Source: a virus (Duplodnaviria; Heunggongvirae; Uroviricota; Caudoviricetes). From it: a stretch of DNA of 38,081 nucleotides. The notes beneath the pieces were generated by a model. The model was not told the DNA's origin. It did not search any database and was given only the letters and a program-made list of their open reading frames with translations. This document shows, piece by piece, positions 1 through 38,001 of the stretch. The stretch's first letter is position 1. Every line of letters begins with the position of its first letter. The position numbers were made by a program, and so were the translations under genes. The DNA is taken from IMG/VR virus record IMGVR_UViG_2534681701_000006. The stretch is one strand, 5' to 3'.

Positions 1-297
1 ACAACATCTTCGGCATCAAGTGTTATCGGGAGCAGCTCAGGCTACGTTGTTTTCTGTTGTTGAAGGAGGACGTAGTTTTCCTTCGCGCCAGTACTGGCGC
101 CACTTGAACAGCAAATTATCGTTGATCCCATGCTCACGAGCGAGTTGCGCTACGGAGATCTCTGGTCGATGCGAGAGTTCCACCATTTTGATTTTGAACT
201 CAACGGGATAATTAGGGCTTTTTTTACGCACTGCGGTTAATGATTTCATGAATAGCGTCCACCATATTTGGTGTCCACTATTCTCTCAGGAATTTCA
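1..297 (-). mobile_element. IS3-family insertion sequence, partial (window starts inside it); terminus at 297
   Basis: Minus-strand end reads TGAAATTCCTGAGAGAATAGTGGACAC (plus 271..297), which resembles the IS3 left end as I recall it (TGA start, AATAGTGGACAC block); orfA start lies 48 bp inside. Confidence 0.55.
37..249 (-). CDS. IS3-family transposase OrfA (HTH), 70 aa
   Basis: Translation (…VEFKIKMVELSHRPEISVAQLAREHGINDNLLFKWRQYWREGKL…) has the pattern of IS3/IS2-group OrfA HTH proteins; sits directly inside the IS3-like terminus. Confidence 0.55.
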   Translation of the reverse strand: MKSLTAVRKKSPNYPVEFKIKMVELSHRPEISVAQLAREHGINDNLLFKWRQYWREGKLRPPSTTENNVA

Positions 298-475
298 GGA
301 TCTGCCAGACGGTGCTGAGACGACGCTTACGCACGCAGTTTAGTTGTGTGGTATCCATTCCTTTGGTTGAGGCTTTACCGGTCAGCCCCTGTAACATCTG
401 GCGGTAGGTGTCTTCATCCATACCCAGTTCATTACGGGCAATATGGATAAGCTGTATCAGGCGTTTTTTCTGCAT
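278..475 (-). pseudogene. GemA-like (Mu gp16 family) gene, 3' end truncated by the IS3-family insertion at 297/298
   Basis: N-terminus MQKKRLIQLIHIARNELGMDEDTYRQMLQGLTGKAS matches the GemA/DUF1018 N-terminal motif as I recall it; ORF is 65 aa against roughly 180 aa expected, and its last codons and stop lie inside the IS terminus. AGGAGA RBS upstream of the ATG at 475. Confidence 0.5.
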
Positions 476-903: not shown

Positions 904-1619
904 CTGGCCTCCAGTTTCTGTTGTTCCTGCCCACTGACCGGGCGGTGCAGTCTGACGTTCTGCCCTTCACGAAACCCCGCATAGCGCGAGGCGTCGCCAT
1001 TGCGGCTTCTTCCCGGTTTACGCGCCCTGGTGGTTTGCGTCTGCGGGTATTTATGTTCCAGCCACTGCTGCATCAATTCACGCTCATCATCGGTCAGGGC
1101 AAAGGACTGTATTTCACTGATAACGGCCAGCACCCAGCCTTCGGCAAACTGGTCTCCACGGCTGGTGCGGGTGGCGGTTTTTATTCTTTTGTTCTGTGCA
1201 CTGATATACTGCTGACGCGCCTTTTTCAGCTGACGGGCCAGCACTTCCCAGGTGTATGCAGCCAGTGCCGCACGTTCCCGGTTGCCGTAGAACCCCACAG
1301 ACGGATGCGTGCCGGGGTGAATGATGGAGTTAACACCAAATACCTCGCGGATGATGTTCATCAGGCCCAGCATGTAGCGCGGTGGACGGAGACTGCCTGT
1401 CGGCCAGTAGTGACTGATGGTTTCATCAATATCACTCATAGCAATGTCGGAATGTGTGATGCCGTGAACATCCATCAGTTTACGGGCTCGGCGCAGTGCC
1501 AGAGCGGCCTCGTGCGGGTTGCCGGATGCGGCCAGCGCCAGCAACTTTTTCAGTTTCTCAATGTGTTTATTCTGGTCTGTCATTGTTCTGTATCTCCGGT
1601 ATTTTTCTGCCGTTTCCAT
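900..1619 (-). CDS. hypothetical early protein with DUF2786-like N-terminal motif, 239 aa
   Basis: Motif KLLALAASGNPHEAALALRRARKLMDVHGI is typical of DUF2786-type phage proteins; long ORF in the early operon orientation. Confidence 0.55.
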   Translation of the reverse strand: METAEKYRRYRTMTDQNKHIEKLKKLLALAASGNPHEAALALRRARKLMDVHGITHSDIAMSDIDETISHYWPTGSLRPPRYMLGLMNIIREVFGVNSIIHPGTHPSVGFYGNRERAALAAYTWEVLARQLKKARQQYISAQNKRIKTATRTSRGDQFAEGWVLAVISEIQSFALTDDERELMQQWLEHKYPQTQTTRARKPGRSRNGDASRYAGFREGQNVRLHRPVSGQEQQKLEAR

Positions 1620-1795
1620 GCCCGGACAGCGTCGGACAGCTCTTTCAGGCTGTATGCTGCTTTAAGCTTTTCCCATAACCACTGTGTTGTTATGTGCATC
1701 AGCAGGGCAGCCAGGGCTGCCCCCGCACTGAGGCATGTCGCCAGGCCAGTAAGAATCAGTGTCCATGCGGTGATTTCCCTGAGTATGTCAGCCAT
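1580..1795 (-). CDS. small membrane protein, 71 aa
   Basis: Hydrophobic segment (ITAWTLILTGLATCLSAGAALAALLM); same strand as the early operon. Confidence 0.35.
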   Translation of the reverse strand: MADILREITAWTLILTGLATCLSAGAALAALLMHITTQWLWEKLKAAYSLKELSDAVRAWKRQKNTGDTEQ

Positions 1796-1809
1796 TGAAT
1801 GCCTCCCGG

Positions 1810-2106
1810 TTACTCGTTCGTGTAAATCACGCCCAGTCGTGCAGCCAGACGTTCCAGTTTTTTCTGTTTGTGGAAGTCAATCAGCCGGTCCATCCCCTGA
1901 AGGCGCAGTTGCTCTGTCATGATTTCCACGTCTGCCAGCTCTGCCGCGAGGTCACTTTCGCTGCCCTGTCCGTTCAGGTTGCGGGCGGCACTGGCCGCCA
2001 GTTCAGCGGCCTCTTCTGCCAGTTTCAGGGCCTGTGCGTCCGGCCCGAAACGCTGCAGGGCCAGACGGTAGAGGGCGGTGCGGGTGAGTTCGGTGTTTCG
2101 TGTCAT
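1810..2106 (-). CDS. MazG-like nucleotide pyrophosphohydrolase-domain protein, 98 aa
   Basis: Acidic EEAAELA … ELADVEIM motifs in a ~100-aa protein resemble small phage MazG-like proteins. Confidence 0.45.
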   Translation of the reverse strand: MTRNTELTRTALYRLALQRFGPDAQALKLAEEAAELAASAARNLNGQGSESDLAAELADVEIMTEQLRLQGMDRLIDFHKQKKLERLAARLGVIYTNE

Positions 2107-2115
2107 GCCGCGCCC

Positions 2116-2388
2116 TCAGTGCTTCCGGCTGACGGTGATGTGCAGGCCGCCTTCTGCAGTGGTTTCCATCCGGTACGGCACCTCATGCTCTGCCGTGTGG
2201 GTGAGTGTGTTCATCAGTACCTGCAGGGCAGCCTCCTTTCCGTTGGTCGCCACAATGGCCTGTGTGGCCATGCTGATTAGCGCCGTCAGGACGTGCTTCA
2301 CATCGGTGAGGTCGCGGCATTCACACTCGTTGACATAGTGTTCAACAAGAGTTCGGGTGCGCTGTCGTGCTTCCTGTGGGGTAATCAT
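2116..2388 (-). CDS. hypothetical early protein, 90 aa
   Basis: ORF tightly packed in the early operon (4-bp overlap with the upstream gene). Confidence 0.45.
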   Translation of the reverse strand: MITPQEARQRTRTLVEHYVNECECRDLTDVKHVLTALISMATQAIVATNGKEAALQVLMNTLTHTAEHEVPYRMETTAEGGLHITVSRKH

Positions 2389-2579
2389 TGCGCGTCCTCC
2401 CTGTCAGGGCGGGAGAATTCCATGACGGGCACGTCCGCCGAAAAATGCTGGCTGCAGTACGGGCAGACCAGGGTGACACGTACTGCAGGTATGTGATACT
2501 TACCGGACATCACGGCGATGGCGCTGTGAAAACGCAGGGCTGTTATATCCCTCTCGCACTGAATACATTTAAATATCAT
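2385..2579 (-). CDS. zinc-ribbon protein, 64 aa
   Basis: Two CxxC pairs (CIQC … CPYC); GAGGAGAA RBS upstream. Confidence 0.45.
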   Translation of the reverse strand: MIFKCIQCERDITALRFHSAIAVMSGKYHIPAVRVTLVCPYCSQHFSADVPVMEFSRPDREDAQ

Positions 2580-2676
2580 AATTTAATTCTCCTCTGTTTC
2601 CGGCGTGCAGAAGCCCGCGGCGCTGACGCCGGAATAAAAAAGAAAATGTTTTTATTAAATAATTAACGTGGTGTGT

Positions 2677-3207
2677 TTACTGCACATCCTGCTCAAAAGG
2701 AATTATTGAAAAATCCTCAATATCACTTTTTATGGTAATACCGGGAATATTTTTCACAGCCTCTTTTTCATTCAGAATGGCATCTTTATTTATTTCCTCC
2801 TTTACACGAATAAAGCGCTCAAGCCCCAGACGTCTCAGCAGTTCAATGACATTATCCGCCCCGCGAATGCTGACTGACGGCGGACGGTTTCGCCACTGCA
2901 CCTCGCCGGTGGTGAGGTTAGCGAACTTCACCTTCCCGTTGCCGGTCAGTTCATCACGGTGCGCCTCACACCATGTCTGGATACCGGACTGCAGTTCGGC
3001 CATGCGTTTTTTCAGGCTCTCGGTGAGCGGGGCATAACGTGCAGTGATGTCGCCAATGGTGTCATTCATTTCTGTTTCAGCCCTGACCAGTTCACGTTGC
3101 GCGTCACCAAGCAGTCTGATTCCCTCAATGACCTCTTCGCGTGTCCCCGGCACCCAGAGTGCTGCTGCGGCTTTGATACGTTTTGCCCCTTTTGTACTTT
3201 TTGCCAT
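2677..3207 (-). CDS. gam: host-nuclease inhibitor Gam (Mu Gam family), 176 aa
   Basis: Size and translation consistent with Mu Gam; GGAGGAG RBS before the ATG at 3207; located downstream of the transposition genes as in Mu. Confidence 0.75.
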   Translation of the reverse strand: MAKSTKGAKRIKAAAALWVPGTREEVIEGIRLLGDAQRELVRAETEMNDTIGDITARYAPLTESLKKRMAELQSGIQTWCEAHRDELTGNGKVKFANLTTGEVQWRNRPPSVSIRGADNVIELLRRLGLERFIRVKEEINKDAILNEKEAVKNIPGITIKSDIEDFSIIPFEQDVQ

Positions 3208-3234
3208 ATTTTATGACTCCTCCTGTTGTGCTGA

Positions 3235-3504
3235 TTACCACAAAGATTCCGGCCACACGACGCGACAGCCGTGCAGTTCGAAAACGCCCTGACGGAAATG
3301 TCCCCTGTGGTCATGACCGGTATACAGATAACAGGCCTTTCCCTGCTCAAGCATGCGCATGCAATGCGCACTCCGGGAAACGCGGATGACAGGTTTGTTA
3401 CCCCTGATGGTGATGCTTTGTACATCCGTGTTCGTCGCCTTAAGCGCCATAATGGCTGACTGCACTTTGCTGATTTGCTGGTTGATACCTGTGGTGGATT
3501 TCAT
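3235..3504 (-). CDS. hypothetical early protein, 89 aa
   Basis: ORF between the B-like ATPase and Gam, the position of Mu kil/cim-type small genes; no recognisable motif. Confidence 0.45.
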   Translation of the reverse strand: MKSTTGINQQISKVQSAIMALKATNTDVQSITIRGNKPVIRVSRSAHCMRMLEQGKACYLYTGHDHRGHFRQGVFELHGCRVVWPESLW

Positions 3505-3506
3505 TA

Positions 3507-4673
3507 TTAAACCCCTTTGACAACGTCAGCGTTGACCTGTGGAACCCCGATTTCAGCGGCCAGATTCATGGCGGCTATTACCAGGTTACTGACGGCCAGC
3601 GGATACAGCAGGCTGACCATATTTTTACGATGACTTCCCGGATTGCTCAGGCGGGCACGTATGGCATCCACTGCGCTGGCGTCCATAATGTCCGTCAGTT
3701 GTTTACCGGCCCGTTGCAGTTTGAACGTCAGAAACTCTTCAAGGTTATTGTCCAGAGGCAGAAGTTCGACCACCTCACAGCGCTGAACGACTTCACGGAC
3801 TTCCATATTGCGTTCAGACAGTTTTGTCGCCAGTTCCGGCTGGCCAATCAGCACGATGGACAGCAGTTTTTTGAAACCGGACTCCAGCTCAAAAAAGCGT
3901 TTGAGGTGTTTCAGTGTCGGAATGGGCAGACTGTGGGCCTCCTCAATCACCAGAACGTGGCTGAACCCCGCCTGGCTGCTGTCTTTCAGGACGCGATGCA
4001 ACTGGCGAAAGCGGGCGTCCTGACTGCGTCTGATGCTTTCCAGTGGTGCGATGGTACTGATAATGGCTTCGGCAATCGCTGCTGCCTTCAGGGTTTTCCC
4101 TTTCACATCGTTGTCTTCCATAGCGATGATGTATGGCTCGATAACAATTACCGGCGCATTCTCGCGGTTGATACGTTCAGTCAGGTCGCGGCGCAGCGTG
4201 GATTTACCCGCACCGGACTCACCGATGACGGCCATAAACCCACCATGACGGGCTGTCTGGTACAACGCCTCACGCACGTAGCGAATATCCGGGGTGGTGA
4301 ACACATCATCAGAACCCTGCATGGCTTCGTCGGCGAACGGGTCACGGAAAAGACCAAACGCTTTTTTGGTTGCTGGAAATAACACCTGTTTTTTGAGTAA
4401 CATATTCTCTTCCTCACTGAGGCTCGTTTTATCTGTGGTACCCGCTGTACGGGGCGTGGCCGCGCCCTGTACAGCATCAAAACTCTTCGTTGTATCAATC
4501 CCCTGACTTTCCAGCCAGGACGCAAGACGCCGGCGCACTTCTCCGGGGCTGGTGCGGGGCCACGCGTTATGATTCACAATCTGGGCCAGCGTGGCCTCAG
4601 AAACATCGACAGCTCTCGCCACCACCGCCTGTGGAATACGGGCCTCTTTCAGTTGCTGCTTCAGTACCAGCAT
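3507..4673 (-). CDS. transposition ATPase, MuB-like AAA+ protein
   Basis: Walker A GESGAGKST and Walker B-like HVLVIEEAH; N-terminal HTH-like segment; GGAGGG RBS directly after the transposase stop, ATG at 4673 (ORF track's 4712 start overlaps the transposase). Confidence 0.85.
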   Translation of the reverse strand: MLVLKQQLKEARIPQAVVARAVDVSEATLAQIVNHNAWPRTSPGEVRRRLASWLESQGIDTTKSFDAVQGAATPRTAGTTDKTSLSEEENMLLKKQVLFPATKKAFGLFRDPFADEAMQGSDDVFTTPDIRYVREALYQTARHGGFMAVIGESGAGKSTLRRDLTERINRENAPVIVIEPYIIAMEDNDVKGKTLKAAAIAEAIISTIAPLESIRRSQDARFRQLHRVLKDSSQAGFSHVLVIEEAHSLPIPTLKHLKRFFELESGFKKLLSIVLIGQPELATKLSERNMEVREVVQRCEVVELLPLDNNLEEFLTFKLQRAGKQLTDIMDASAVDAIRARLSNPGSHRKNMVSLLYPLAVSNLVIAAMNLAAEIGVPQVNADVVKGV

Positions 4674-4683
4674 GTTTCCCTCC

Positions 4684-6453
4684 TCAGTTGCCGTTAACAA
4701 TGCTGATAACACTGCTGCGGGCCGGTGTGGTCAGCGTGGCCATGACTTCATCCAGTGCGGCTTCCGGTACGCCGTCCGGGTACTGTGCCGTTAACTGGCG
4801 GTAATGTTCCGGCGTCCAGGTAAGGCCGTCGGCGCTGAACTTATCGCGCAGGGCTTTCGCGGCCTCCACATGAGTCATGGGACGTTGTTCAGTGCGCGGC
4901 CCGCGTACGTCAGAGGCCTGACCACGCTTCGGCATATAGGCCGGAAGTGTGGTGTCGTCGATATGTTTATACGGGTCAAGCCGCCCGCCGAACGGCAGCG
5001 CCTTCGCCTTGCGTGCGGCGGCTGCATCTGCGGCGTTGTCTGTACCGGTAACCAGCGCTTCGGTTTCTTTTGCCGCCATCTGTGCCGGGGTTTCCGGCAG
5101 GGCTTTGTAACTTTCGCCAAATACCGCCGCGCCTTCAGCAAAGCCAAACTTGTTCTTTCTGACCTCTTCGACCAGGAAGAACGTCTCGTGGCCGTCCTCA
5201 CCGGTCAGAACCACCTGTGCCACATCGCTGCGCCATGGGTTACGGGTAATCATCAGTTTTTCACCAACCAGTACGCCCGGTACCGTTGATACGTCAAATT
5301 CAGTGCCCCGGAACGAGACACGAAGTTTTGGCGTGACTTTGCGGAGTTCTGGTGCCGCCACAGCCAGTTCACGACATACCTCAACGGAAGGCGCTTTTTT
5401 CAGCTGCTCAGCAGTAATCTTCAGCCAGATATCCGTGCGGGTTTTACCGTGGCGGCTGTGAACAGCCGTGGCGTTAAAGTGGCTGCGCCATTTCGCGGCC
5501 AGCGCGTTGAGTTCTTCCAGACTGTGAACCGGCCGGAACTTCAGACCCGGCTCCAGCTTGCGTTCGATAATGTCACGCGCCTTTTCCACCTGTCCGGTGG
5601 CGCGGGCGTTATGCGGCTTGTGCGCTATCAGGTCGATGCCCAGTGAGCGGCACATGTTTTTCGTCATACCCGCGGTGTTTGCCGAGCCGGGGTCGAGATA
5701 GAGTATTTTCGGCACGCCGTGCAGCACGTCTGCGCCGCCACGCTCCTGCATGGCGTTGATAAGCACAGAACACAGGTTCTCACCTGATTCCGCGCCCGTC
5801 ACATACTCAACGTAAATCCAGCCGCTGGCATGGTCGGTAATCTCGTAACTCCACACGCGGTCACTGGCGATACGGGCAAGGTTAGCGGGCTTGTTCTTGT
5901 AGAACTTCGCGCTGTCCATCACCTGCAGCCCTTTATGTCCATTGCTCAGGTAGTAAAGCGTGCAGAGTGAGGCGTCAATCTGCCAGACATGATTGGGATG
6001 CAGACTGGCCACTTCGGTATGTGGTGCAGGGGCATCCAGTTGTTCCGGGTGCAGGCCATAGTTACGCAGAGCACGGCTGATGGCATCTTCAGACAACGGG
6101 AAAAACTCACCGGTGGTTTCATCTGTTCTGCCTGCGGTGATAAAGCCGTTAGCCCGCAGGGTTTCCACTGCATCTGCGATGGAATAGAGACGCTTACCGT
6201 TCTTGCGGGTGGCCTCACGCAGTGTGGCAGATATCAGCGCGGCTTCGTCGCGGGTCAGGGCGCTGCGCCCGGCATCGGCGCGTTTTTTGCGTTTATCAGT
6301 CACAGATACCTCCTTCAGCCTGCGCAGCAGAGTGGCGCGGGACATGCCAAGTTCAGCACAGGCAGCGTCGTATATTGCACCGCGTTTACCATGCCCCGCG
6401 TCACGTGCCGCGCGGGCTGTTTCAACCAGTTTTTCAGTCAGTGCCGGGGTCAT
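4684..6453 (-). CDS. DDE transposase, MuA/TnsB-type (Mu transposase family), 589 aa
   Basis: Integrase-core-like region (HVWQIDAS…) and size; immediately upstream of the AAA+ ATPase partner, as in Mu A-B. Confidence 0.85.
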   Translation of the reverse strand: MTPALTEKLVETARAARDAGHGKRGAIYDAACAELGMSRATLLRRLKEVSVTDKRKKRADAGRSALTRDEAALISATLREATRKNGKRLYSIADAVETLRANGFITAGRTDETTGEFFPLSEDAISRALRNYGLHPEQLDAPAPHTEVASLHPNHVWQIDASLCTLYYLSNGHKGLQVMDSAKFYKNKPANLARIASDRVWSYEITDHASGWIYVEYVTGAESGENLCSVLINAMQERGGADVLHGVPKILYLDPGSANTAGMTKNMCRSLGIDLIAHKPHNARATGQVEKARDIIERKLEPGLKFRPVHSLEELNALAAKWRSHFNATAVHSRHGKTRTDIWLKITAEQLKKAPSVEVCRELAVAAPELRKVTPKLRVSFRGTEFDVSTVPGVLVGEKLMITRNPWRSDVAQVVLTGEDGHETFFLVEEVRKNKFGFAEGAAVFGESYKALPETPAQMAAKETEALVTGTDNAADAAAARKAKALPFGGRLDPYKHIDDTTLPAYMPKRGQASDVRGPRTEQRPMTHVEAAKALRDKFSADGLTWTPEHYRQLTAQYPDGVPEAALDEVMATLTTPARSSVISIVNGN

Positions 6454-6468
6454 AGCTTGTCTTCCCTG

Positions 6469-6786
6469 TTATCCGATTCTGGCGGCAATTTTTCTGGCGA
6501 GGTCGCACAGTGTTTCGCCATCGCAGGTTTTCACCACGGTATTTACCGGTTGCGGTGCAACTACCGGGCGTAATGCTGACTGATTCTGCAGACGTCTTAT
6601 CTGCTGCATCAGCATCACCTCCATCGTCAGTACAAACGGGTGCGTCTCCTGTGCGGGTACGCAGATTTCACCGGAAGGGGTCACCACGCGGAAACCCTGC
6701 ACCATCTCCGGCAGCAGATTACACAGTGCGTGCCCCAGTGCCTCCGGGCTGTCCATCAGGGTATTTTGTGTGTTATTCGTATTCAT
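6469..6786 (-). CDS. hypothetical protein, 105 aa
   Basis: ORF between the regulators and the transposase; abuts the next gene. Confidence 0.45.
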   Translation of the reverse strand: MNTNNTQNTLMDSPEALGHALCNLLPEMVQGFRVVTPSGEICVPAQETHPFVLTMEVMLMQQIRRLQNQSALRPVVAPQPVNTVVKTCDGETLCDLARKIAARIG

Positions 6787-7706
6787 TACTGCATATCCTC
6801 CGGTCGGTTGATTTCAGGTTCCGGTTCGGTCAGCCAGGCGGGGGCATCGTTACCCGATGGAGCGGCCTCAAGGTCAAACGTCTCACGTAATGCATGAACA
6901 CTGCGTTCAATCTGGCAGACCAGACCGGCCATGAAATCTCTGGGGGTATCGATCATGTTTTTGGTGCAGTATTCACACAGGGTCTCAAAAACACTGGACA
7001 GCCGGACGGCGATAGCCGATTCGGCCTCAACCGCTAATGCCGTCACTTCCGCCCGCAATTTTTTCAGTTCTTCGTCTGGCGGCGGAGGTTGCAGGCGCGA
7101 TTTCTTCTCCAGTTTTGTGGCCAGTTCGTTGATTTTTTCGTCCTTTCCGGCAAGCACCTGTTGCTGAGCTGCGTTGGTTTCGCGCGCTTCACGCAGGGCG
7201 GCCTTCAGTTCGCGGCTGGTCATGCGATCAATATCATCAAGCGTTGCACCGGCGACGGTTCCACCATCAGCTAATGCGTCGAGTTCTTCGTCATCCAGAA
7301 CCATCAGTTCATATAACTTGGTTTTTCCCAAAACGCTCAGCGCTGAGCGTTTTGGCTGTTCATCTCCATTGCCGAGAAATTTCACGCTGGCCTGCATCAT
7401 GCGACGAGCTACCTGTGGTGCTAATCCGAGGTCGTTTTCCAGAATATTTGTGAAATCACCATGCGGTTCATTTTCTTTTAAGATGATCAGCCGCTTACCC
7501 GCTTCCAACATAGATTCAGCACTCTGCGCCATATAAAAACGTGCTTCGTGAACGATGCGTTCACGTTCATAAGGCAGTCCATCACCAAACTGCTGCATGA
7601 TCTCCATGCGATGCTGTGTCATGGCATTCAGGCTGACGTTGAGATCATCCGACAGCGGTACATCGGCGTTCAGTTCAGTGTTAATCGGTGATTTGGTACG
7701 TCCCAT
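6786..7706 (-). CDS. hypothetical protein with central coiled-coil, 306 aa
   Basis: Long ORF with charged, coiled-coil-like central region; family not recognised with certainty (possibly DUF3102-like). Confidence 0.55.
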   Translation of the reverse strand: MGRTKSPINTELNADVPLSDDLNVSLNAMTQHRMEIMQQFGDGLPYERERIVHEARFYMAQSAESMLEAGKRLIILKENEPHGDFTNILENDLGLAPQVARRMMQASVKFLGNGDEQPKRSALSVLGKTKLYELMVLDDEELDALADGGTVAGATLDDIDRMTSRELKAALREARETNAAQQQVLAGKDEKINELATKLEKKSRLQPPPPDEELKKLRAEVTALAVEAESAIAVRLSSVFETLCEYCTKNMIDTPRDFMAGLVCQIERSVHALRETFDLEAAPSGNDAPAWLTEPEPEINRPEDMQ

Positions 7707-7716
7707 TGATTACTCC

Positions 7717-8031
7717 TTACAAACGACTACCTGAAATGACACGTTGGTTAATTTCGTTAATACGATCCTGTGCACGTGCCATCTCGTTACTGTGGGCCAT
7801 GGCGATCTGCAGTAACTGGATGCCCGGTGCAAAACGTCCGTTCTCCAGTTTCAGAGCCAGCCCTTCTTCAATGAGGGTGTTGAGTGCCCGGTTGATGTTT
7901 GCCGGTGACTCGTGCAGTGCTGTCGCCAGTTCACCGTTAGAAATACCGTTCAGGGCATGACCGCGCAGCGCTTTGAGTACCCGGAGGATGCGACTGCCGG
8001 AGCTTGAAACATTCGTCTTACTCATCTGCAT
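7717..8031 (-). CDS. putative winged-helix DNA-binding regulator, 104 aa
   Basis: HTH-like segment ISNGELATALHESPANINRALNTLIEEGLAL; AGAGG RBS; start may be the ATG at 8025. Confidence 0.5.
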   Translation of the reverse strand: MQMSKTNVSSSGSRILRVLKALRGHALNGISNGELATALHESPANINRALNTLIEEGLALKLENGRFAPGIQLLQIAMAHSNEMARAQDRINEINQRVISGSRL

Positions 8032-8077
8032 ACCTCTTTTGCGATATGTGATAACCTTTTACAAAGACTCAAAATAT

Positions 8078-8266
8078 TTAGGCCGCCTGAGCTGTTGATT
8101 TCAGTCCCAACTTCACGGCGATTTCATGGGATTTACCGTAACGGGCTTTGGTCTGCCCGTTGAGAACGCGGTATACCTCATTGCGGTTGTAGCCGTTTTC
8201 TTCTGCCCAGCGGGTGAAAGTGATCCCGCGCTGGCGGAAGAGAGCTTTGACTTGTTCTGCAGTCAT
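8078..8266 (-). CDS. Cro/Ner-like small HTH regulator, 62 aa
   Basis: Small basic HTH protein, first gene of the early operon, divergent from the repressor; the position of Mu ner. Confidence 0.6.
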   Translation of the reverse strand: MTAEQVKALFRQRGITFTRWAEENGYNRNEVYRVLNGQTKARYGKSHEIAVKLGLKSTAQAA

Positions 8267-8319
8267 CGTTGTCTCCTTTGTTGATGCAATGATGTTTGCC
8301 TTATATGTGTTAGATTATT

Positions 8320-8335
8320 GCTCATAATTATGAGC
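8320..8335. promoter_or_regulatory. perfect 16-bp palindrome GCTCATAATTATGAGC in the divergent control region (candidate operator)
   Basis: Read directly; lies between divergently transcribed regulator genes, about 25 bp upstream of the repressor start. Confidence 0.45.
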
Positions 8336-8359
8336 ATATCAAGATAGAGATTCACTTTT

Positions 8360-8716
8360 ATGAGCAAAGATATAGGAGAGCGCGTTATTTCTGTGAGGAA
8401 GAAAGCAGGGTTGAACCAGAGAGAATTTGCAGCTCGTTTAGGTATTTCTAATGGTGGTATCAGTCAGATTGAAAATGGAAAGGCGATGCCTGGAGGGGAG
8501 TTTCTGTTAAAGATGCATCAAGAGTTTAATGTTGATGTAAATTGGTTGCTCACTGGAATGAGCACAGATGGTATGACTAGAAACCAGAATCAAATTTCCC
8601 CAGAAAAACAAAAACTAATAGATACTTTTGACGACATGACACCAGACCAACAACGCTCATTTCTTGAGATTGGGCGATTCTATACTCAGCCAAAACCAGG
8701 AAAAATCGCAGGCTGA
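8360..8716 (+). CDS. XRE-family (Cro/CI-type HTH) repressor, 118 aa
   Basis: N-terminal HTH signature (LNQREFAARLGISNGGISQIENGK); divergent from the early operon. Confidence 0.75.
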   Translation: MSKDIGERVISVRKKAGLNQREFAARLGISNGGISQIENGKAMPGGEFLLKMHQEFNVDVNWLLTGMSTDGMTRNQNQISPEKQKLIDTFDDMTPDQQRSFLEIGRFYTQPKPGKIAG

Positions 8717-8801
8717 TACTGACCCGGACACAAAGGACAGGTGGTTGATCTGGATGCTTTCAGAAAACATCGCCAGTGACATAGTGGAAGTTGTTTGGTT
8801 T

Positions 8802-8834
8802 ACCGGAAAGCATTGTGCTTTCCGGTTTTGTTTC
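8802..8834 (+). terminator. rho-independent terminator downstream of the repressor gene
   Basis: Stem ACCGGAAAGC / GCTTTCCGGT with loop ATTGT, followed by TTTTGTTTC. Confidence 0.5.
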
Positions 8835-9597
8835 AGAAGTTGCAGATTAGCAGTTCACGGCGCGGCGTGGGTTTACCCGCCAGACTGTAGTTGATATTCA
8901 CTGTCTGTATGTTCAGTCCAGTGAACACCTCGCGCATCTGCGGGATGTCGTTCACCGAAATTATCATTTTTCCTCTGATGCACCGGGCCAGCTCTGCCAG
9001 CCGCGAGTAGTTCCCTTCAGGAAAATCCACACCATAGCCTTCCGTACCCAGGTACGGTGGGTCGCAGTAGAACAGCGTGTGCGGACGATCATAACGCTCA
9101 ATGCACTGTTGCCAGTCCATGTGTTCTATGACTGTTCTGGAAAGCCGCAGGTGTGCCGCTGACAGTTCTTCTTCAATACGTAGCAGGTTGAAGCGTGGCG
9201 GGGATGTGGTGGAGGTACCGAAGCTGTGCTCTGCCACCTTGCCGCCAAACGCCTGCTTCTGAAGGTAGTAGAACCGTGCCGCACGCTGGATATCCGTCAG
9301 TGTTTCTTCCGGGGTGATCTGCAGCCATTTGTAGATCTGACGGCTGACCAGCGCCCATTTGAACTGGCGGACAAATTCTTCCAGGTGATGCTTTACCACC
9401 CGGTACAGATTCACCAGTTCACCGTTGATATCATTGATGACTTCGATCTTGCCGGGTGTCTTAAGAAAATAGAGCGCTGCTGCCCCACAAAACGGCTCCA
9501 CATAACATTCATGCGCCGGAAACAGCGGCAGAATGTGTTTTGCAAGGCGGCGTTTGCCACCAATCCACGGCACGATGGGTAATGTCTGCATTTTCAT
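8833..9597 (-). CDS. DNA N6-adenine methyltransferase, Dam/D12 class (orphan, no cognate endonuclease seen)
   Basis: PWIGGKRRL (Dam motif-I-like) near the N-terminus and catalytic DPPY; start most likely the ATG at 9597 rather than 9687. Confidence 0.8.
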   Translation of the reverse strand: MKMQTLPIVPWIGGKRRLAKHILPLFPAHECYVEPFCGAAALYFLKTPGKIEVINDINGELVNLYRVVKHHLEEFVRQFKWALVSRQIYKWLQITPEETLTDIQRAARFYYLQKQAFGGKVAEHSFGTSTTSPPRFNLLRIEEELSAAHLRLSRTVIEHMDWQQCIERYDRPHTLFYCDPPYLGTEGYGVDFPEGNYSRLAELARCIRGKMIISVNDIPQMREVFTGLNIQTVNINYSLAGKPTPRRELLICNF

Positions 9598-9787
9598 AAT
9601 CTGTAAGCCTTTTACAATTATTAAAAAATATGGCAGTCTGGTCAGGTCTCGCGAGACTGACTGAACCTTGGTCGGCTCACAGCGCATTCCTGTGGGGCGA
9701 TGACCAGCCCGGCTTTCGGGTGCCGGGCTGGTCGTTCTTTCATGATGCGGCAGGGATGGCGGGATTTCTGTTAATGTGGTTTAGGGA

Positions 9788-10406: not shown

Positions 10407-13100
<2,694 letters not shown>

Positions 13101-27078: not shown

Positions 27079-30030
27079 ATGTCGGGACAGTTTTCAGTCG
27101 GCGTTGTTATCGGCGGGATGATTGGCAGCACATTCCGTTCTGCAATGAGCGGTACCCGCCGTGCGCTTGATTCCCTGAGCGATACCTCACGCCGCCTGCA
27201 GGAACGTCAGAACGCTTTAACCCGTGCAACAGAACGTTATGGTCAACTGGGTTCTTCCCGGATGCAGCATCTCAACAGCGAGCTGCTGCGGGTAAGCCGC
27301 ACCATGGAGCAAATTGAGCGCCAGCAGCGCCGTCTGTCAGCGGCATCCGCTACCAGTGATGCGCTGAAAGCTAACCGCATGGCGCTGTATGGTCAGGGGA
27401 TTGAAGCGTATGGCATGGCACAGACTGTTTATCATACGGTTTCCCCTGCCGTTCAGCAGTCCATGTCTTTTCAGGACAAAATGATTGATATGTCGATCAC
27501 CGCAAAATATGACAATAAAACGCGGGATGCACTTGCCGGACAGATAAAAGGCTGGGCGCTTAAATACAATCAGTATCAGGATGAGCTGCAGGAGGCGGTG
27601 GGTTCACTCATCAGCGACAATATTGATAATGTGTCAGATATCGGTTTTCTGATGCCGGATATTGCCCGCGCGGCAACGGCAACACGCACGTCTGCTCAGG
27701 ACTGGGCAAAAGTGGCCGCAGTCTGGCAAAACTCCCTGAAAGGTGCGGCCAGAGATTTTGGTGCCGTTCAGAATATTATGGCTTATGCCGGTGACCAGGG
27801 GTCATTTGAAATCCCGGATCAGGTCAAGTGGATGCAGTCCCTGGCCCCAATGATGGCGGGTATTGCCAGTGGAAAAGAGGCTGTTGCTGAAATCGGGGCC
27901 AGTCTCCAGATAGCAAAAATCGGTGCAGGTTCCACCGACGAAGCAGCCAATAATTTTAAAAACTTTCTTACCAAAATTTTTGCCCGCGATACTCAGAAAC
28001 AGTTTGCTGATCTGGGTATTGATTTGCAGGGATCTATTGCGAGTTATAAGGCTGCGGGGATCTCTCCGATTGAAGGGATGTTGAGTGTTATAGAACGTTA
28101 CCTCAATGCCAAAAGCCCCGAAGCGCTGGCCGGCTTCAAATCCGCCATGAAAATAAAGAATGATACGGCAAGAGATGAGGCACTTCAGGCTCTGGCGAAA
28201 AACTTTGGTCTGGGTGATATGTTCGCGGATATGCAGGTCATGGCATTTATCCGCCCGATGCTGGCCAACATGGACAGATATCGAGAGATCCGTGCCGGTG
28301 CTCTCAGGGCTGCGGATAACGATTTGCTTGCCAGTGCTTACGATCAGCGACTGAAATCTCCCCTTGAAGCCACTAAAACACTTATGGTCAGCAGTCGCGA
28401 TCTGGCAATTACGCTGGGCGATCAATTAGCTCCATCTTTTATTTCTTTGACTCAGGAACTGCTTCCACTCATTCAGGGGGCAAAACACTGGGTAGCGACT
28501 CACCCGCAATTTGTCAGTGGGGCTTTTAAGCTCATCAGTGCGCTCCTTGCGATTAAGATAGCGACTGTTGGTCTCAAACTGGGGCTGAATCTCCTTATTT
28601 CCCCCTTTGTAAGTGTCTGGAAAAATGCTGTTTTACTCCGGACCAACTGGCATCGACTGACTACCGCACTCGGAGAAGGTGGCAAATTACGCTGGCTTGT
28701 CACTGGATTCAGCCGACTGACCAGCGGAGGACTGAAACTCAGCAAAGTTCTGGCGGGCAGCCTCGTTCGCGGTTTTATGAGCGCTGCACGTGCCGTTCTC
28801 TGGATTGGGCGAGCGCTGATGATGAATCCCATCGGTCTCGTTATCACCGCTGTCGCGGCAGCAGCTTACCTTATCTACCGCAACTGGGGGGCTGTCAGTG
28901 GTTGGTTTAAACAGCGCTGGGCTGACATTCAGGAAGCCTTTAACGGCGGCATTGTGGGAACTGGTAAGTTGCTGATTAACTGGTCGCCGGCAGGCCTGCT
29001 CTATAAAGCCTTTGCGGCTGCGCTGAAATATTTCGGCGTTGCTCTGCCGGCAAAGTTCACCGACTTCGGTGGCCATCTTATCGACGGTCTGATTAACGGT
29101 ATCAAAAACAAATGGGGGTCGCTCAAATCCAGTGTAACCGGAATGGGTGACAGCATCAGTAGCTGGTTTAAACAGCGCTGGGCTGACATTCAGGAAGCCT
29201 TTAACGGCGGCATTGTGGGAACTGGTAAGTTGCTGATTAACTGGTCGCCGGCAGGCCTGCTCTATAAAGCCTTTGCGGCTGCGCTGAAATATTTCGGCGT
29301 TACTCTGCCGGCAAAGTTCACCGACTTCGGTGGCCATCTTATCGACGGTCTGATTAACGGTATCAAAAACAAATGGGAGTCGCTCAAATCCAGTGTAACC
29401 GGAATGGGCGACAGCATCAGTGGCTGGTTCAGCGAAAAGCTGGGCATTCATTCGCCGAGCCGCGTGTTTATGGGCTTTGGTGACAATATCGCGCAGGGGG
29501 CCGCCATTGGCCTGCAGCGGACCACTCCGCTTGCAGCTCTGGCCGGGCAGCGAATGGCCAGTGAACTGCTCCCCAAAATGCCCGTGAGCATTCAGGGGCC
29601 AGAAATACGGGATAACACTTCAGGTGTTCGCTTCAGTATGCCGTTGCCCGATATCAATGGGTTTATGTCGTCTGCTAAAAATGCGATCGGAGCCGTAATC
29701 AATAGTTTGTCTTCCATGCCCGCTATTCCGCTCTCCACCCGGGCATCGATTTTACCAGGGCAACGTCTGGCAAATGAGATGACACCGGATGTTCCCCGTA
29801 TCCCCTCGCCTGAAATCCTGGCTGCCGGATATTCAGGCCGTGGTGCAGCTGCAACCGGCGGTGGAACGTCTGGTGGTATCCAGGTCAGCTTTAATCCTCA
29901 GTTTTTCCTCAATGGCAGGGAAACCACAGCGCCTGCAGGACTGACTGGTGCCCTGAATATGAGTCTGCATGAGCTGGAAAAAATGCTGGAGCGTCTGCTT
30001 GCTCAGAAACAACGTAAGGAGTACCGCTGA
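27079..30030 (+). CDS. tail tape measure protein, 983 aa, containing an internal tandem duplication
   Basis: Largest ORF in the tail module; GGAGG RBS; Ala/Gly-rich hydrophobic central region. Confidence 0.85.
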   Translation: MSGQFSVGVVIGGMIGSTFRSAMSGTRRALDSLSDTSRRLQERQNALTRATERYGQLGSSRMQHLNSELLRVSRTMEQIERQQRRLSAASATSDALKANRMALYGQGIEAYGMAQTVYHTVSPAVQQSMSFQDKMIDMSITAKYDNKTRDALAGQIKGWALKYNQYQDELQEAVGSLISDNIDNVSDIGFLMPDIARAATATRTSAQDWAKVAAVWQNSLKGAARDFGAVQNIMAYAGDQGSFEIPDQVKWMQSLAPMMAGIASGKEAVAEIGASLQIAKIGAGSTDEAANNFKNFLTKIFARDTQKQFADLGIDLQGSIASYKAAGISPIEGMLSVIERYLNAKSPEALAGFKSAMKIKNDTARDEALQALAKNFGLGDMFADMQVMAFIRPMLANMDRYREIRAGALRAADNDLLASAYDQRLKSPLEATKTLMVSSRDLAITLGDQLAPSFISLTQELLPLIQGAKHWVATHPQFVSGAFKLISALLAIKIATVGLKLGLNLLISPFVSVWKNAVLLRTNWHRLTTALGEGGKLRWLVTGFSRLTSGGLKLSKVLAGSLVRGFMSAARAVLWIGRALMMNPIGLVITAVAAAAYLIYRNWGAVSGWFKQRWADIQEAFNGGIVGTGKLLINWSPAGLLYKAFAAALKYFGVALPAKFTDFGGHLIDGLINGIKNKWGSLKSSVTGMGDSISSWFKQRWADIQEAFNGGIVGTGKLLINWSPAGLLYKAFAAALKYFGVTLPAKFTDFGGHLIDGLINGIKNKWESLKSSVTGMGDSISGWFSEKLGIHSPSRVFMGFGDNIAQGAAIGLQRTTPLAALAGQRMASELLPKMPVSIQGPEIRDNTSGVRFSMPLPDINGFMSSAKNAIGAVINSLSSMPAIPLSTRASILPGQRLANEMTPDVPRIPSPEILAAGYSGRGAAATGGGTSGGIQVSFNPQFFLNGRETTAPAGLTGALNMSLHELEKMLERLLAQKQRKEYR
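28903..29424. repeat. near-perfect tandem duplication, 2 x 261 bp (87 codons), inside the tape measure gene
   Basis: TGGTTTAAACAGCGCTGGGCTGACATTCAGG… recurs at 28903 and 29164 with only a few mismatches across the unit. Confidence 0.9.
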
Positions 30031-34932: not shown

Positions 34933-36224
34933 ATGGGAAACCTGAATGAAACAGAAAAGTGGGAAGAAAATATCTATCAACTGGAGACATCAGATCCGGT
35001 TCTGGGTGGTGCAGACGGGATATCAAATCGAGCCCCCGGCAACTGGCAAACAGGACGAAATGGCTGAAGAAGAAAACGGAGGAAGCCGCACAGTCACTGG
35101 CTGAACACGTACGTTCCCGTAACCACCCGGACGCGACACTGACAGCTAAGGGGTTCACCCAACTGAGCAGTGCCACCAACAGCACCTCTGAAACGCTGGC
35201 CGCCACACCAAAAGCGGTCAAGGCTGCATACGACCTGGCAGCCGGCAAGGCGCCTGCCAGCCACACTCACCCGTGGAGTCAGATAACGGGAGTGCCTGCG
35301 GCTTCACTGACGGCAAAAGGCACCGTACAACTGAGCAGCGCCACGGACAGTCAATCAGAAACTGAGGCTGCCACGCCGAAGGCGGTCAAGGCTGCATACG
35401 ACCTTGCAGCCGGCAAGGCGCCCGTCAGCCACACTCACCCGTGGAGTCAGATAACGGGAGTGCCTGCTGCCTCGCTGACGGCAAAAGGCACCGTACAACT
35501 GAGCAGTGCCATCAACAGCACGTCTGAAATACTGGCCGCCACACCGAAAGCGGTCAAGGCTGCATACGATCTGGCAAACGGAAAACAACCGGCAGATGCC
35601 ACGCTCACTGCTCTGGCAGGACTTGCCACTGCAGCAGATCGGTTGCCTTATTTTACCGGAGCAGACCGCGCAGCGCTGGCAACCCTTACAGCTATTGGTC
35701 GCGCTATTATCGCTAAGGGCAGTATAAAAGATGTCCTCAATTACCTTGGTTTGGGGGAAGGCTCTGCATTGCCTGTTGGTGTACCGGTTCCATGGCCCAC
35801 CGCCACACCGCCAGCAGGCTGGTTAAAGTGCGACGGGCGCGCCTTTACAAAAGAACAATATCCTGTTCTGGCCAGAGTCTACCCGACCCTCCGTCTTCCC
35901 GATTTACGCGGTGAGTTTATCCGTGGATGGGACGACGGGCGCAAGATTGACGAGGGGCGTAAGTTGCTTTCATGGCAGAAAGGTACACTGGTCGGCGGTC
36001 ATGACGATAACGATTCTTCGCTTGATATCTCGTACATGAGTAACGGAAATAATATTGACTATGGCGGCGATAAGGTGTTTGCGGGGAATTACCGTAGCGA
36101 TTATTTGTGGTACGTAATTCTGGGTGGAACAAACAGTCGCGCAAAAGCCGAATTAAACGGAGCATTCTTTAACATAACCCGCCCCCGCAATATCGCGTTT
36201 AACTATATCGTGAGGGCGGCGTGA
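34933..36224 (+). CDS. tail fibre protein with an apparent frameshift in a C5 tract (35034..35038) and phage tail-fibre repeats
   Basis: ATG at 34933 encodes MGNLNETEKWEENIYQLETSDPVLGGADGISNRAP, which resembles tail-fibre N-termini as I recall them, then hits a stop; the long ORF continues in another frame from 34959. Three ~56-aa repeats; conserved C-terminal NYIVRA. Confidence 0.7.
35745..35944. repeat. left arm of ~200-bp perfect inverted repeat flanking the invertible tail-fibre cassette
   Basis: Identical in reverse complement to 37166..37362; invertase half-site-like sequence (GGTTTGGGGGAA) at its outer edge. Confidence 0.8.
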
Positions 36225-36230
36225 TACCGT

Positions 36231-36845
36231 TCAACTGGCAAGTGCCAGTGGCGCTTCCGGCCAGCTGATTTCAGGTGCCGTGCTGATATCCAGTGCGTTC
36301 AGCTCGTCGATATAATCCAGCACGGCGTTCAGTTTTGCCGTTTCTTCTGGTGTCAGACTGCGACCAGCACGCAGTTTGAGGTTGATAAGATCGACTGACG
36401 CCATCGCCTGTTTCACCCGTTGCTGGCGTTGCTGTCTGGCAACCTCCAGTTCTGCGGCTCGCTGCCGTTCAGTATCGGTTACCCACGCCTCACCGTTCCA
36501 GGTATCCCATGGCGTGGCTGGCTGTTTTGTGGTGGTGTCCGCCGGGTAATCACCCGGTTGGGTAATCAGAACAGGGTTACCGTTCTCCGTGCTGTATACC
36601 GTCTCGCCGCGGTGATCAGGCACATGCTCCCACCCGTTCAGCGTGGCAGTCCGGCAAACCACGTAACCCGAAATTGCCTCCGGCGGTGCATCGGCGCACG
36701 AATGTGCCGGAGTACCCACCCCAAGGGCGAGATACTCCACAGAGGATGAGGTGTATTCCCGGGTTTCCTCGTCATAGTGATATACAGTGATATCGCCCGC
36801 TACAGTGGCGATACCGTTTTCATCCAGAACTGCAGTGTTACTCAT
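36231..36845 (-). CDS. tail fibre assembly protein (Tfa, Mu U-like), 204 aa
   Basis: Tfa-like size and sequence; immediately downstream of the alternative fibre C-terminus on the minus strand. Confidence 0.7.
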   Translation of the reverse strand: MSNTAVLDENGIATVAGDITVYHYDEETREYTSSSVEYLALGVGTPAHSCADAPPEAISGYVVCRTATLNGWEHVPDHRGETVYSTENGNPVLITQPGDYPADTTTKQPATPWDTWNGEAWVTDTERQRAAELEVARQQRQQRVKQAMASVDLINLKLRAGRSLTPEETAKLNAVLDYIDELNALDISTAPEISWPEAPLALAS

Positions 36846-37357
36846 TAAACTGCCCTCACAATGTAATTAAGTGCAATGCTACGGGGTCTGACAGTGATAC
36901 CCTTCGCATACCCGCTTCTGATAGAGGTCAGAATAGTAGCCTGCATACCATTGTCTGACATTGCCACGACAGGATCGCTGAATGTTGTCCCGTCCGGCAT
37001 TTTAAAGCTGCCCTCACGAAGGTCTGTAATGGAATCTTCATTGTTGAATCCCATGCCGACTATCCCCGAGGTTCCCGTAGTGTCCTGGTTATAATAATCC
37101 AGCATTGCTGTTCTTAACAGCGTTGCCCCTTGTGCGGACAGCAACTTACGTCCTGTATCAACTTTGCGCCCGTCGTCCCATCCACGGATAAACTCACCGC
37201 GTAAATCGGGAAGACGGAGGGTCGGGTAGACTCTGGCCAGAACAGGATATTGTTCTTTTGTAAAGGCGCGCCCGTCGCACTTTAACCAGCCTGCTGGCGG
37301 TGTGGCGGTGGGCCATGGAACCGGTACACCAACAGGCAATGCAGAGCCTTCCCCCAA
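36845..37357 (-). CDS. alternative tail fibre C-terminal cassette (S'v-like), with no start codon of its own
   Basis: First ~64 aa are identical to an internal segment of the plus-strand fibre (inverted repeat), then diverge; ends in NYIVRAV, paralleling the expressed fibre. Confidence 0.6.
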   Translation of the reverse strand: MGEGSALPVGVPVPWPTATPPAGWLKCDGRAFTKEQYPVLARVYPTLRLPDLRGEFIRGWDDGRKVDTGRKLLSAQGATLLRTAMLDYYNQDTTGTSGIVGMGFNNEDSITDLREGSFKMPDGTTFSDPVVAMSDNGMQATILTSIRSGYAKGITVRPRSIALNYIVRAV

Positions 37358-37362
37358 ACCAA
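37166..37362. repeat. right arm of the inverted repeat flanking the invertible tail-fibre cassette
   Basis: Reverse complement is identical to 35745..35944. Confidence 0.8.
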
Positions 37363-37428
37363 CGTTTATCTCTCAAATCCTCCCCACATTATCTCAGTAC
37401 TTTAACCACTCAAAAGGGAGTATTTTTA

Positions 37429-38001
37429 ATGCTGATTGGCTACATACGTGTGTCAACAAATGACCAAAACATAGATTTGCAACGCAATGCATTAATGTGC
37501 GCAGGATGTGAACAGATTTTTGAGGACAAAATGAGCGGAACCAAGTCGGAACGACCAGGCCTGAAACGCGCTTTAAAGTGCCTTAAAAGAGGGGATACAT
37601 TGGTGGTCTGGAAGCTGGATCGGTTGGGTAGAAGAATGAAACACCTCATTGCTCTCACAGAAGAGCTACGCGCAAAAGGTGTCAATTTTCGCAGTCTGAC
37701 GGATTCAATCGATACCAGCACTCCGATGGGAAGGTTCTTTTTTCATATGATGGGTGCACTGGCAGAAATGGAGCGTGAACTGATAGTTGAGCGCACGCTG
37801 GCAGGACTGGCTGCTGCGCGAGCACAAGGAAGAGTTGGAGGACGTCGCCCGAAACTGACGAAGGAGCAGCATGAGCAGATCGCAAGATTGCTCCAGAAAG
37901 GGTATGACAGAAAGCGGCTGGCAATTATCTATGATATTGGACTGTCAACGATCTACCGCTATCACCCTGTTGGGACTGTCATAACGCAACCTGAAATGTA
38001 A
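37429..38001 (+). CDS. serine recombinase, DNA invertase of the Gin/Pin/Cin/Hin family, 190 aa
   Basis: N-terminal MLIGYIRVSTNDQ catalytic-serine motif and C-terminal HTH; GGGAG RBS; adjacent to the invertible fibre cassette. The ORF-track start at 37300 is an upstream extension. Confidence 0.9.
   Translation: MLIGYIRVSTNDQNIDLQRNALMCAGCEQIFEDKMSGTKSERPGLKRALKCLKRGDTLVVWKLDRLGRRMKHLIALTEELRAKGVNFRSLTDSIDTSTPMGRFFFHMMGALAEMERELIVERTLAGLAAARAQGRVGGRRPKLTKEQHEQIARLLQKGYDRKRLAIIYDIGLSTIYRYHPVGTVITQPEM

Follow-up and report, generated by a model that had tools for sequence, protein, structure and literature searches.

What do three genes contribute when they lie between the first early regulator and the transposase of a transposable prophage, in an interval where phage Mu has none? 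We addressed this question for a BcepMu-like transposable prophage of Escherichia coli (genus Bcepmuvirus) held as IMG/VR virus record IMGVR_UViG_2534681701_000006, and by the window we mean the whole stretch of 38,081 nucleotides that was analysed. In Mu, as the initial annotation of this locus had rightly stated, ner is followed directly by A (Mup02, 1099-1326, and Mup03, 1328-3319) with no gene between them. In the window this interval is occupied by genes for a winged helix-turn-helix protein (wHTH), a protein of the DUF3102 family and a small protein of 105 amino acids (p105). Comparison with relatives speaks for DNA binding linked to transposition in the case of wHTH and the DUF3102 protein, and for an accessory, host-directed role of p105. 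The first two form, together with the transposase TnpA and its ATPase partner TnpB, a conserved four-gene module of B3/BcepMu-type phages, which is present in essentially every such phage sampled. The early operon is read from the minus strand in the following order.

8078..8266, minus strand: first early gene, encoding a 62-amino-acid helix-turn-helix (HTH) protein of the BcepMu gp16 family (TIGR04111, 3.2e-28; phrog_925)
7717..8025, minus strand: wHTH, 102 amino acids, a predicted stand-alone winged helix of IclR/MarR type with a C-terminal helix (PF09339, phrog_1368)
6786..7706, minus strand: DUF3102 protein, 306 amino acids (PF11300, phrog_1748)
6469..6786, minus strand: p105, accessory protein of 105 amino acids (phrog_5446), translationally coupled and in the variable slot between the DUF3102 gene and the transposase gene
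4684..6453, minus strand: rve (DDE) transposase TnpA of B3/BcepMu type, 589 amino acids, lacking PF02316
3507..4712, minus strand: AAA+ (AAA_22, ExeA-like) transposition ATPase, analogue of TnpB/MuB (start in RefSeq: 4673)

The presence of three genes between regulator and transposase, and their tight coupling in the early operon, had both been claimed in the initial annotation, and both claims were confirmed, because the open reading frames (ORFs) lie on the minus strand at these coordinates, their spacing is operon-like and there is a lone promoter-like site. The stop of the regulator gene (8078) is separated from the wHTH start by 52 nucleotides (nt) and the wHTH stop (7717) from the DUF3102 start (7706) by 10 nt that contain AGGAG; p105 begins within the stop codon of DUF3102, the two sharing TAATG at 6786 (a gap of -1), and 15 nt lie between the p105 stop (6469) and the transposase ATG (6453). 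Shine-Dalgarno sequences are recognisable in the gaps within the block, while no convincing second promoter and no credible terminator was found inside it, and scans for Rfam families and tRNAs returned neither; NCBIfam likewise yielded nothing further on the three genes. For wHTH the second ATG (8025), which is the start annotated by RefSeq and GenBank, is most likely the true one, the alternative ATG at 8031 giving a protein of 104 amino acids. All three proteins have full-length PHROG matches (5e-45 for wHTH, 9.6e-144 for DUF3102 and 1e-73 for p105). The ratio of nonsynonymous to synonymous substitution (dN/dS), obtained as pairwise Nei-Gojobori estimates against orthologues, was 0.02-0.07 for wHTH, 0.09-0.19 for DUF3102, 0.07-0.23 for the transposase and 0.31-0.56 for p105. 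Taken together, the PHROG matches and the dN/dS values mark the three as more than chance ORFs, and they suggest that purifying selection on wHTH and DUF3102 is at least as strong as that on the transposase. Escherichia phage PhiKM matches the window with 100% identity over positions 4600-8800, and the 1.56-kb stretch holding the three genes was found in 621 of 5426 complete E. coli genomes (~11%), at insertion sites which vary among the chromosomes, with 0 copies on the plasmids of the collection.

We then compared the block across related elements, using a sample of 160 loci (80 from IMG/VR and 80 from GTDB species-representative genomes) that span Enterobacterales, Burkholderiales, Neisseriales, Pseudomonadales and others. 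wHTH, DUF3102 and TnpA were all detected in 142 of these loci, and in every one of the 142 the three genes were collinear on one strand. The other 18 were mostly contig ends, decayed symbiont prophages, or loci with orthologues too divergent for tblastn; a hidden Markov model (HMM) scan recovered wHTH in two loci that tblastn had missed. The window itself carries the B3/BcepMu cassette, with wHTH, DUF3102, TnpA (rve) and TnpB (AAA_22) collinear on one strand, and the same cassette is represented by ORF14-ORF13-ORF12-ORF11 in B3, orf18-17-16-15 in phiSHP3 and gp16-gp15-gp14-gp13 in JBD25. BcepMu shows the same order and orientation (gp12-gp11-gp10-gp09-gp08), its gp12 being 34% identical to wHTH (2e-16) and its gp10 39% identical to DUF3102 (3e-52), and in B3 the corresponding values are 57% for ORF14 (tblastn), which also matches PF09339, and 48% for ORF13. 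The transposase is of the same rve type in all three, with 68% identity to that of BcepMu and 56% to that of B3, and the AAA+ partner is likewise the same. BcepMu differs from the window in having an extra gene of 70 amino acids (gp11) between wHTH and DUF3102 and nothing between gp10 and the transposase, where the window has p105. Klebsiella KP12 carries wHTH (89% identity) and DUF3102 (74%) with the transposase directly after, and in a Neisseria prophage wHTH and an rve transposase occur together with a DUF3102 gene that has decayed. The homologues of wHTH thus include BcepMu gp12, B3 ORF14, JBD25 gp16 and phiSHP3 orf18, and those of DUF3102 include BcepMu gp10, B3 ORF13 and KS10 gp15. The RefSeq name of the window's own protein is 'DUF3102 domain-containing protein'.

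The pair also diverges together with the transposition genes. Across the loci, identity correlated with TnpA identity at a Spearman coefficient of 0.88 for wHTH, 0.91 for DUF3102 and 0.94 for TnpB, as against 0.44 for the repressor, and among prophages with TnpA at least 97% identical the repressor ranged from 22 to 100% identity while wHTH stayed at 92-100%. The pair is therefore not immunity-specific, since its identity tracks TnpA and not the repressor. The initial annotation had regarded all three genes as candidates for lineage-specific factors, and had taken absence from close relatives as evidence against such roles. This description does not hold for wHTH and DUF3102, which are retained as part of the cassette throughout the gamma- and betaproteobacterial phages and prophages of B3/BcepMu type, and it fits p105, which was present in 8 of the 160 loci and whose absence from the remainder speaks against a core transposition factor.

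A second pattern emerged from the comparison with Mu. The window shares with Mu its lifestyle and its operon logic, that is, a divergent repressor, a small HTH regulator, the transposase and the ATPase, followed by gam, gemA and mor; in Mu, however, the order is ner-A-B without interruption, and the regulator upstream of our three genes does not belong to the Ner family. It matched TIGR04111 (BcepMu_gp16) at 97.4 bits against a cut-off of 34, and PF13693 (Ner, HTH_35) at 17.9 bits, below the cut-off of 25, which suggests that it is Ner-like by position only and corrects the earlier designation 'Cro/Ner-like' to membership of the BcepMu gp16 family. The transposases differ as well. MuA carries both PF02316 (HTH_Tnp_Mu_1, domains I-alpha/I-beta), its N-terminal DNA-binding domain, and PF09039 in cis, whereas the window transposase has neither, and among the transposases scanned PF02316 was present in MuA and D3112 A only, neither of which is preceded by wHTH or DUF3102. 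In MuA, domain I-alpha provides the extra DNA binding at the enhancer/operator that assists or regulates transposition. Not one of 24 Mu/D3112-type IMG/VR loci had a match to DUF3102 or wHTH, whereas the rve-type transposases, which lack PF02316, have both genes upstream. The KS10-type transposase, which is unrelated to these and contains Mu-transpos_C, also lacks PF02316, and a DUF3102/phrog_1748 gene lies directly upstream of it in 13 of the 13 loci with upstream sequence, with no wHTH. The distribution of DUF3102 is complementary to that of the Mu-type N-terminal domain.

The term 'winged-helix-like', used for the first protein in the initial annotation, proved apt. wHTH scored 26 bits with PF09339 (HTH_IclR; cut-off 22). 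Its family profile matched the DNA-binding domains of IclR, MarR, KdgR and TtgV in the PDB at 1e-5 to 1e-6 (1.5e-5 to 8.6e-5 for KdgR, TtgV and IclR), while a search of the PDB with the single sequence gave only generic MarR/IclR matches. It shares with IclR regulators the N-terminal winged HTH and the following helix (PF09339; KdgR, TtgV and IclR in the PDB). Full members of that family are, however, defined by a C-terminal effector-binding domain, which was not detected in wHTH, a protein of only 102 amino acids, and we consider it a probable stand-alone DNA-binding module. Its public annotation reads 'IclR family transcriptional regulator', and PHROG labels it 'transcriptional regulator'. 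We asked whether wHTH is a detached MuA I-alpha domain, and this candidate was rejected at the level of homology, a 20-sequence wHTH profile aligning with MuA 1-151 at an hhalign probability of 0.2%.

The DUF3102 protein matched PF11300 at 27.0 bits (cut-off 24.4) over residues 65-173, and beyond this its Pfam matches were to weak coiled-coil families only, with no N-terminal ParB/Srx (CTP-binding) domain. In an AlphaFold model built from an alignment of 51 sequences of 32-90% identity, an N-terminal helical domain (residues 20-111; predicted local distance difference test, pLDDT, ~80) contains the helices 84-92 and 97-111 in an HTH-like arrangement, and is followed by a poorly defined middle part, a long helix spanning 164-202 and, at 210-276, a helical hairpin modelled with confidence (pLDDT ~90). 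The earlier description of this protein as a coiled coil is thus plausible in view of the long helices predicted at 164-202 and 210-249. Sequence and profile searches of the PDB with DUF3102 returned no match. With regard to the HTH domains of ParB, KorB, SopB and VirB, DUF3102 showed no sequence similarity to them, Foldseek gave no match, the N-terminal CTPase domain of ParB was not detected, and the window contains no parS-like repeated sites. On the basis of these profiles and models we regard both wHTH and DUF3102 as predicted DNA-binding proteins.

Within the DUF3102 protein conservation is uneven. Residues 59-85 and 146-175 are ~90% conserved, whereas residues 86-145, comprising helices 2-3 of the putative HTH and the linker that follows, occur as discrete allelic types with identities of either ~40-50% or 83-100%. 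The gene is an intragenic mosaic, in the E. coli alleles exactly over this segment, which recombines independently of the flanking genes, of its own near-invariant flanks and of the transposase; at one locus (L011), for example, TnpA is 99% and DUF3102 83% identical. The allele type showed no consistent association with the immunity region. In JBD25 gp15 only the C-terminal half is kept (hhalign 98.9%), behind a different HTH-like N-terminus. DUF3102 therefore appears to be modular, with a variable N-terminal half that carries the predicted HTH and a conserved, helical C-terminal half. The family is large: clustering at 90% identity gave 1620 clusters, and at 50% there were 1585 representatives. 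Its longer members (434-545 amino acids) have N-terminal extensions without a Pfam domain and were uninformative as Rosetta-stone fusions. We also followed a conserved C-terminal PxW motif shared by the proteins of BcepMu, B3 and the enterobacterial elements; because it is missing in phiSHP3 and KS10, it was ruled out as a universal docking motif.

p105 presents a different picture. Among 5.8 billion proteins its relatives amount to 11 clusters, which come exclusively from E. coli or Salmonella, as do the eight loci of our sample that carry it. The ORF is intact in every carrier, with GGAGG 10 nt upstream of its start, and the N-terminal 65 residues are well conserved; a homologue with 55% identity occupies the same slot in the same reading frame (dS 0.55, dN 0.25). 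Searches of Pfam, NCBIfam and the PDB gave no match and the structure model, built from a 7-sequence alignment, is unreliable (pLDDT 58.8); the public annotation of p105 is 'hypothetical protein'. The slot between DUF3102 and transposase is empty in most loci, but elsewhere it holds a DUF551-like ORF of 99 amino acids (L073, 6933-7232) or an unrelated ORF of 73 amino acids (L070, 6888-7109), both translationally coupled, and this junction is a hot spot for unrelated small ORFs. Prophages of Photorhabdus and Xenorhabdus (L120-L127) have gaps of 100-220 nt in this place. p105 is flanked by neither a promoter-like nor a terminator-like site and is consequently not a classical moron. Its sporadic presence among otherwise collinear relatives is that of an accessory early gene, and together with its dN/dS it points to a lineage-restricted, fast-evolving early gene outside the conserved core.

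Since the position is invariant, the pair co-diverges with TnpA and TnpB, and the distribution is complementary, we tentatively prefer, at somewhat less than even confidence, the explanation that wHTH and DUF3102 bind DNA in trans and thereby assist or regulate the transposition module, and that p105 is a host-directed accessory gene. According to this explanation phage DNA would be the target of the pair, which would serve in an accessory, architectural or regulatory capacity during transposition-replication and would functionally replace the additional DNA-binding domain present in cis at the N-termini of MuA and D3112 A. p105 would be an early accessory gene in a variable slot aimed, by analogy with other small early genes, at the host or at competing phages, which we consider its most likely targets. 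D3112 Tip and DMS3 Aqs1 are small, lineage-variable early genes of this kind, located between regulator and transposase. With these and other variable early genes known from transposable Pseudomonas phages, such as gene 10 of the B3-like phage Fc02, p105 has in common that it is small, lineage-variable and part of the early operon between regulator and transposase, although it has no sequence similarity to them and lacks a promoter and terminator of its own.

A bolder form of the favoured explanation, which we hold to be doubtful, is a split design in which phages of B3/BcepMu and KS10 type delegate the DNA recognition performed by the MuA N-terminus (enhancer/operator, synapsis) to separate early proteins. 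In such a design the HTH half of DUF3102 might supply an exchangeable 'specificity' while its constant helical half docks onto the transposition machinery, and in rve-type phages a small IclR-like winged-helix dimer would join DUF3102. If this were true, wHTH and DUF3102 would be an unrecognised class of trans-acting factors for assembly or regulation of the transpososome, and DUF3102 (~1,600 clusters) would receive its first function. Prophages of B3/BcepMu type are common in E. coli, Salmonella, Klebsiella, Pseudomonas and Burkholderia, and their transposition has so far been deduced almost wholly by analogy with Mu; were the pair to assist or regulate transposition in any way, this would give a second phage transpososome architecture and a role for a large DUF. 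p105 is a candidate accessory factor, directed at host or phage, in a prophage associated with ST131.

Several observations weigh against the favoured explanation. The complementarity rests on few independent lineages (B3/BcepMu and KS10 versus Mu/D3112) and may have arisen by phylogenetic coincidence. As wHTH is not homologous to the N-terminus of MuA, it could substitute for it by analogy only, and the KS10 type, with DUF3102 and no wHTH, indicates that the pair is not obligate. DUF3102 alleles down to 74% identity stand beside TnpA that is at least 97% identical, and this swapping next to a near-identical transposase argues against tight protein-protein co-adaptation. The rve transposase keeps ~150 N-terminal residues with an HTH and thus probably binds the phage ends alone. 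A search of the whole window for parS-like or operator-like repeated sites gave only the early operator palindrome described below and unrelated repeats. DUF3102 also occurs in elements that do not transpose, which fits a generic regulator. In the literature searched we found no functional study of any homologue of the three proteins, the mentions of DUF3102 being incidental, and according to the paper on Fc02 most ORFs of the pE operon are unassigned apart from A, B, gemA and mor.

The strongest competing explanation is that wHTH and DUF3102 are transcription factors in the phage's developmental programme, namely second-tier early regulators, anti-silencers or co-repressors in the style of KorB/VirB and IclR/MarR, which have no direct role in transposition, control phage or host promoters, and adjoin the transposase only as fellow early genes. 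We regard this as quite possible, and almost as likely as the explanation we favour. Both proteins are predicted to have the DNA-binding folds of classical transcription factors, and the PHROG label of the wHTH family is in keeping with this. Outside transposable phages, the DUF3102 domain is encoded on an Enterobacter hormaechei plasmid, NZ_AP025814 (L091, 8965-10572), an IncFIB phage-plasmid carrying RecA and tail genes, where the gene lies two genes upstream of a Mor-family activator, and on lactobacillus plasmids, where it adjoins a primase-type replication gene (Lactiplantibacillus, L092). CII-like activators are among the neighbouring early genes of relatives (BcepMu gp13, B3 ORF15 and D3112 orf3), and the independent exchange of DUF3102 alleles beside the transposase would likewise be expected of a regulator. 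On the other hand, the pair is unlinked to the immunity region, wHTH remaining at 92% or more where the repressors drop to 22%, and the slot directly 5' of tnpA is kept in all complete loci and also in the KS10 type with its different transposase family. Furthermore, phages of Mu/D3112 type run the same early-middle-late (Mor/C) cascade without these proteins. If the pair nevertheless consists of ordinary early transcription factors, the outcome would be a matter of routine annotation.

It is improbable, in our assessment, that any or all of the three proteins serve in host takeover, anti-defence or superinfection exclusion. Gene 10 of Fc02, just after ner in the same operon of this B3-like phage, confers superinfection exclusion; p105 is lineage-restricted, evolves at a comparatively high dN/dS and shares its slot with unrelated small ORFs; and the discrete allelic types of the DUF3102 HTH segment are what an arms race would also produce. 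The pair is nonetheless unlike host-specific takeover genes, because it is under very strong purifying selection and near-universal in hosts from Enterobacterales to Burkholderiales, Neisseriales and Pseudomonadales. PADLOC returned marginal matches only (2.5e-5 to a wHTH-containing model and 6e-3 to LmuB) and none for p105, which has neither a homology nor a confident fold that would support such a function. That p105 is a mere spacer or a decaying remnant is very unlikely, for although it is absent from 152 of the 160 loci, lacks database matches and a confident structure and is the least constrained gene of the block, its ORF is intact in every carrier behind a GGAGG and with its start overlapping the preceding stop, its dN/dS is below 1 even against the 55%-identical homologue in the same position and frame, and both the conserved N-terminal 65 residues and the full-length match to PHROG 5446 speak for a functional gene.

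As regards expression, the lack of which would have counted against the initial annotation, the available evidence is indirect and covers the pair only. In a proteomic study of E. coli CCUG 73778 a DUF3102 protein (QGA32870), an HTH protein (QGA32871) and Gam (QGA32865) were quantified by mass spectrometry, and the spacing of the QGA accessions appears to match the gene order of this prophage, p105 included; QGA32870 and QGA32871 are thus putatively assigned to this exact prophage, by the names of the products and the spacing of the accessions. In Fc02, strand-specific RNA sequencing showed that the pE operon is transcribed upon induction from ner through the transposase and early genes. The BcepMu and B3 counterparts are entered in their genome records as conserved hypotheticals, and since the genes are annotated in public records the feature as such is not new and is ordinary among phages of this group. 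Novelty lies only in the pattern revealed by comparison: a universal cassette, a DUF3102 protein built of modules, and a distribution complementary to that of the N-terminal domain of Mu.

The control region in front of the operon consists of the following features.

8314..8342, minus strand: early promoter-like site, TTGATA-17-AATAAT, the sole sigma70-like match upstream of the operon
8319-8336: perfect 18-bp palindrome TGCTCATAATTATGAGCA, overlapping the -10 region of the promoter-like site
8360..8716, plus strand: divergent XRE/CI-type repressor, 118 amino acids (PF01381, 4.6e-15; PF07022; named HTH protein in RefSeq)

A half-site related to the palindrome is found at 8358-8369, where the repressor gene starts, and the palindrome is likely the operator of the lysis-lysogeny switch. 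Directly beyond the repressor, as in related prophages, lies a gene for a D12-class (Dam-like) adenine methyltransferase (8833-9687), for which the longest ORF is 284 amino acids here as compared with 254 in RefSeq.

Elsewhere in the prophage we noticed an IS21-family insertion sequence of 1954 bp (11093-13046; istA 11179-12201, istB 12198-12980) with a 5-bp target duplication, which is an insertion relative to the 99.5-99.9% identical prophage in E. coli 4/1-1. It interrupts a hypothetical gene of 729 bp ~20 nt from its 5' end, just upstream of the genes for holin and lysis, and may affect this gene or late expression. Alignment with the prophage of E. coli 4/1-1 begins at 331, and since window positions 1-330 do not align, the gemA-proximal end differs between the two copies. 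The other end carries an invertible tail-fibre region resembling the G segment of Mu (35743-38001), in which inverted repeats of 229 nt (96%; 35743-35971 and 37137-37365) flank a segment of 1165 nt whose opposite strand codes for an alternative fibre tip (Collar domain) and for a tail-fibre assembly protein; a serine invertase gene (37300-38001; Resolvase, 8.6e-51, and HTH_7) adjoins it. Two further repeats were seen in structural genes, namely a 261-nt tandem duplication with 98% identical copies (28895-29416) within a gene of tape-measure size (27079-30030, 983 amino acids), and three 168-nt tandem repeats (35137-35640) in the tail-fibre gene, corresponding to Phage_fiber_2 repeats.

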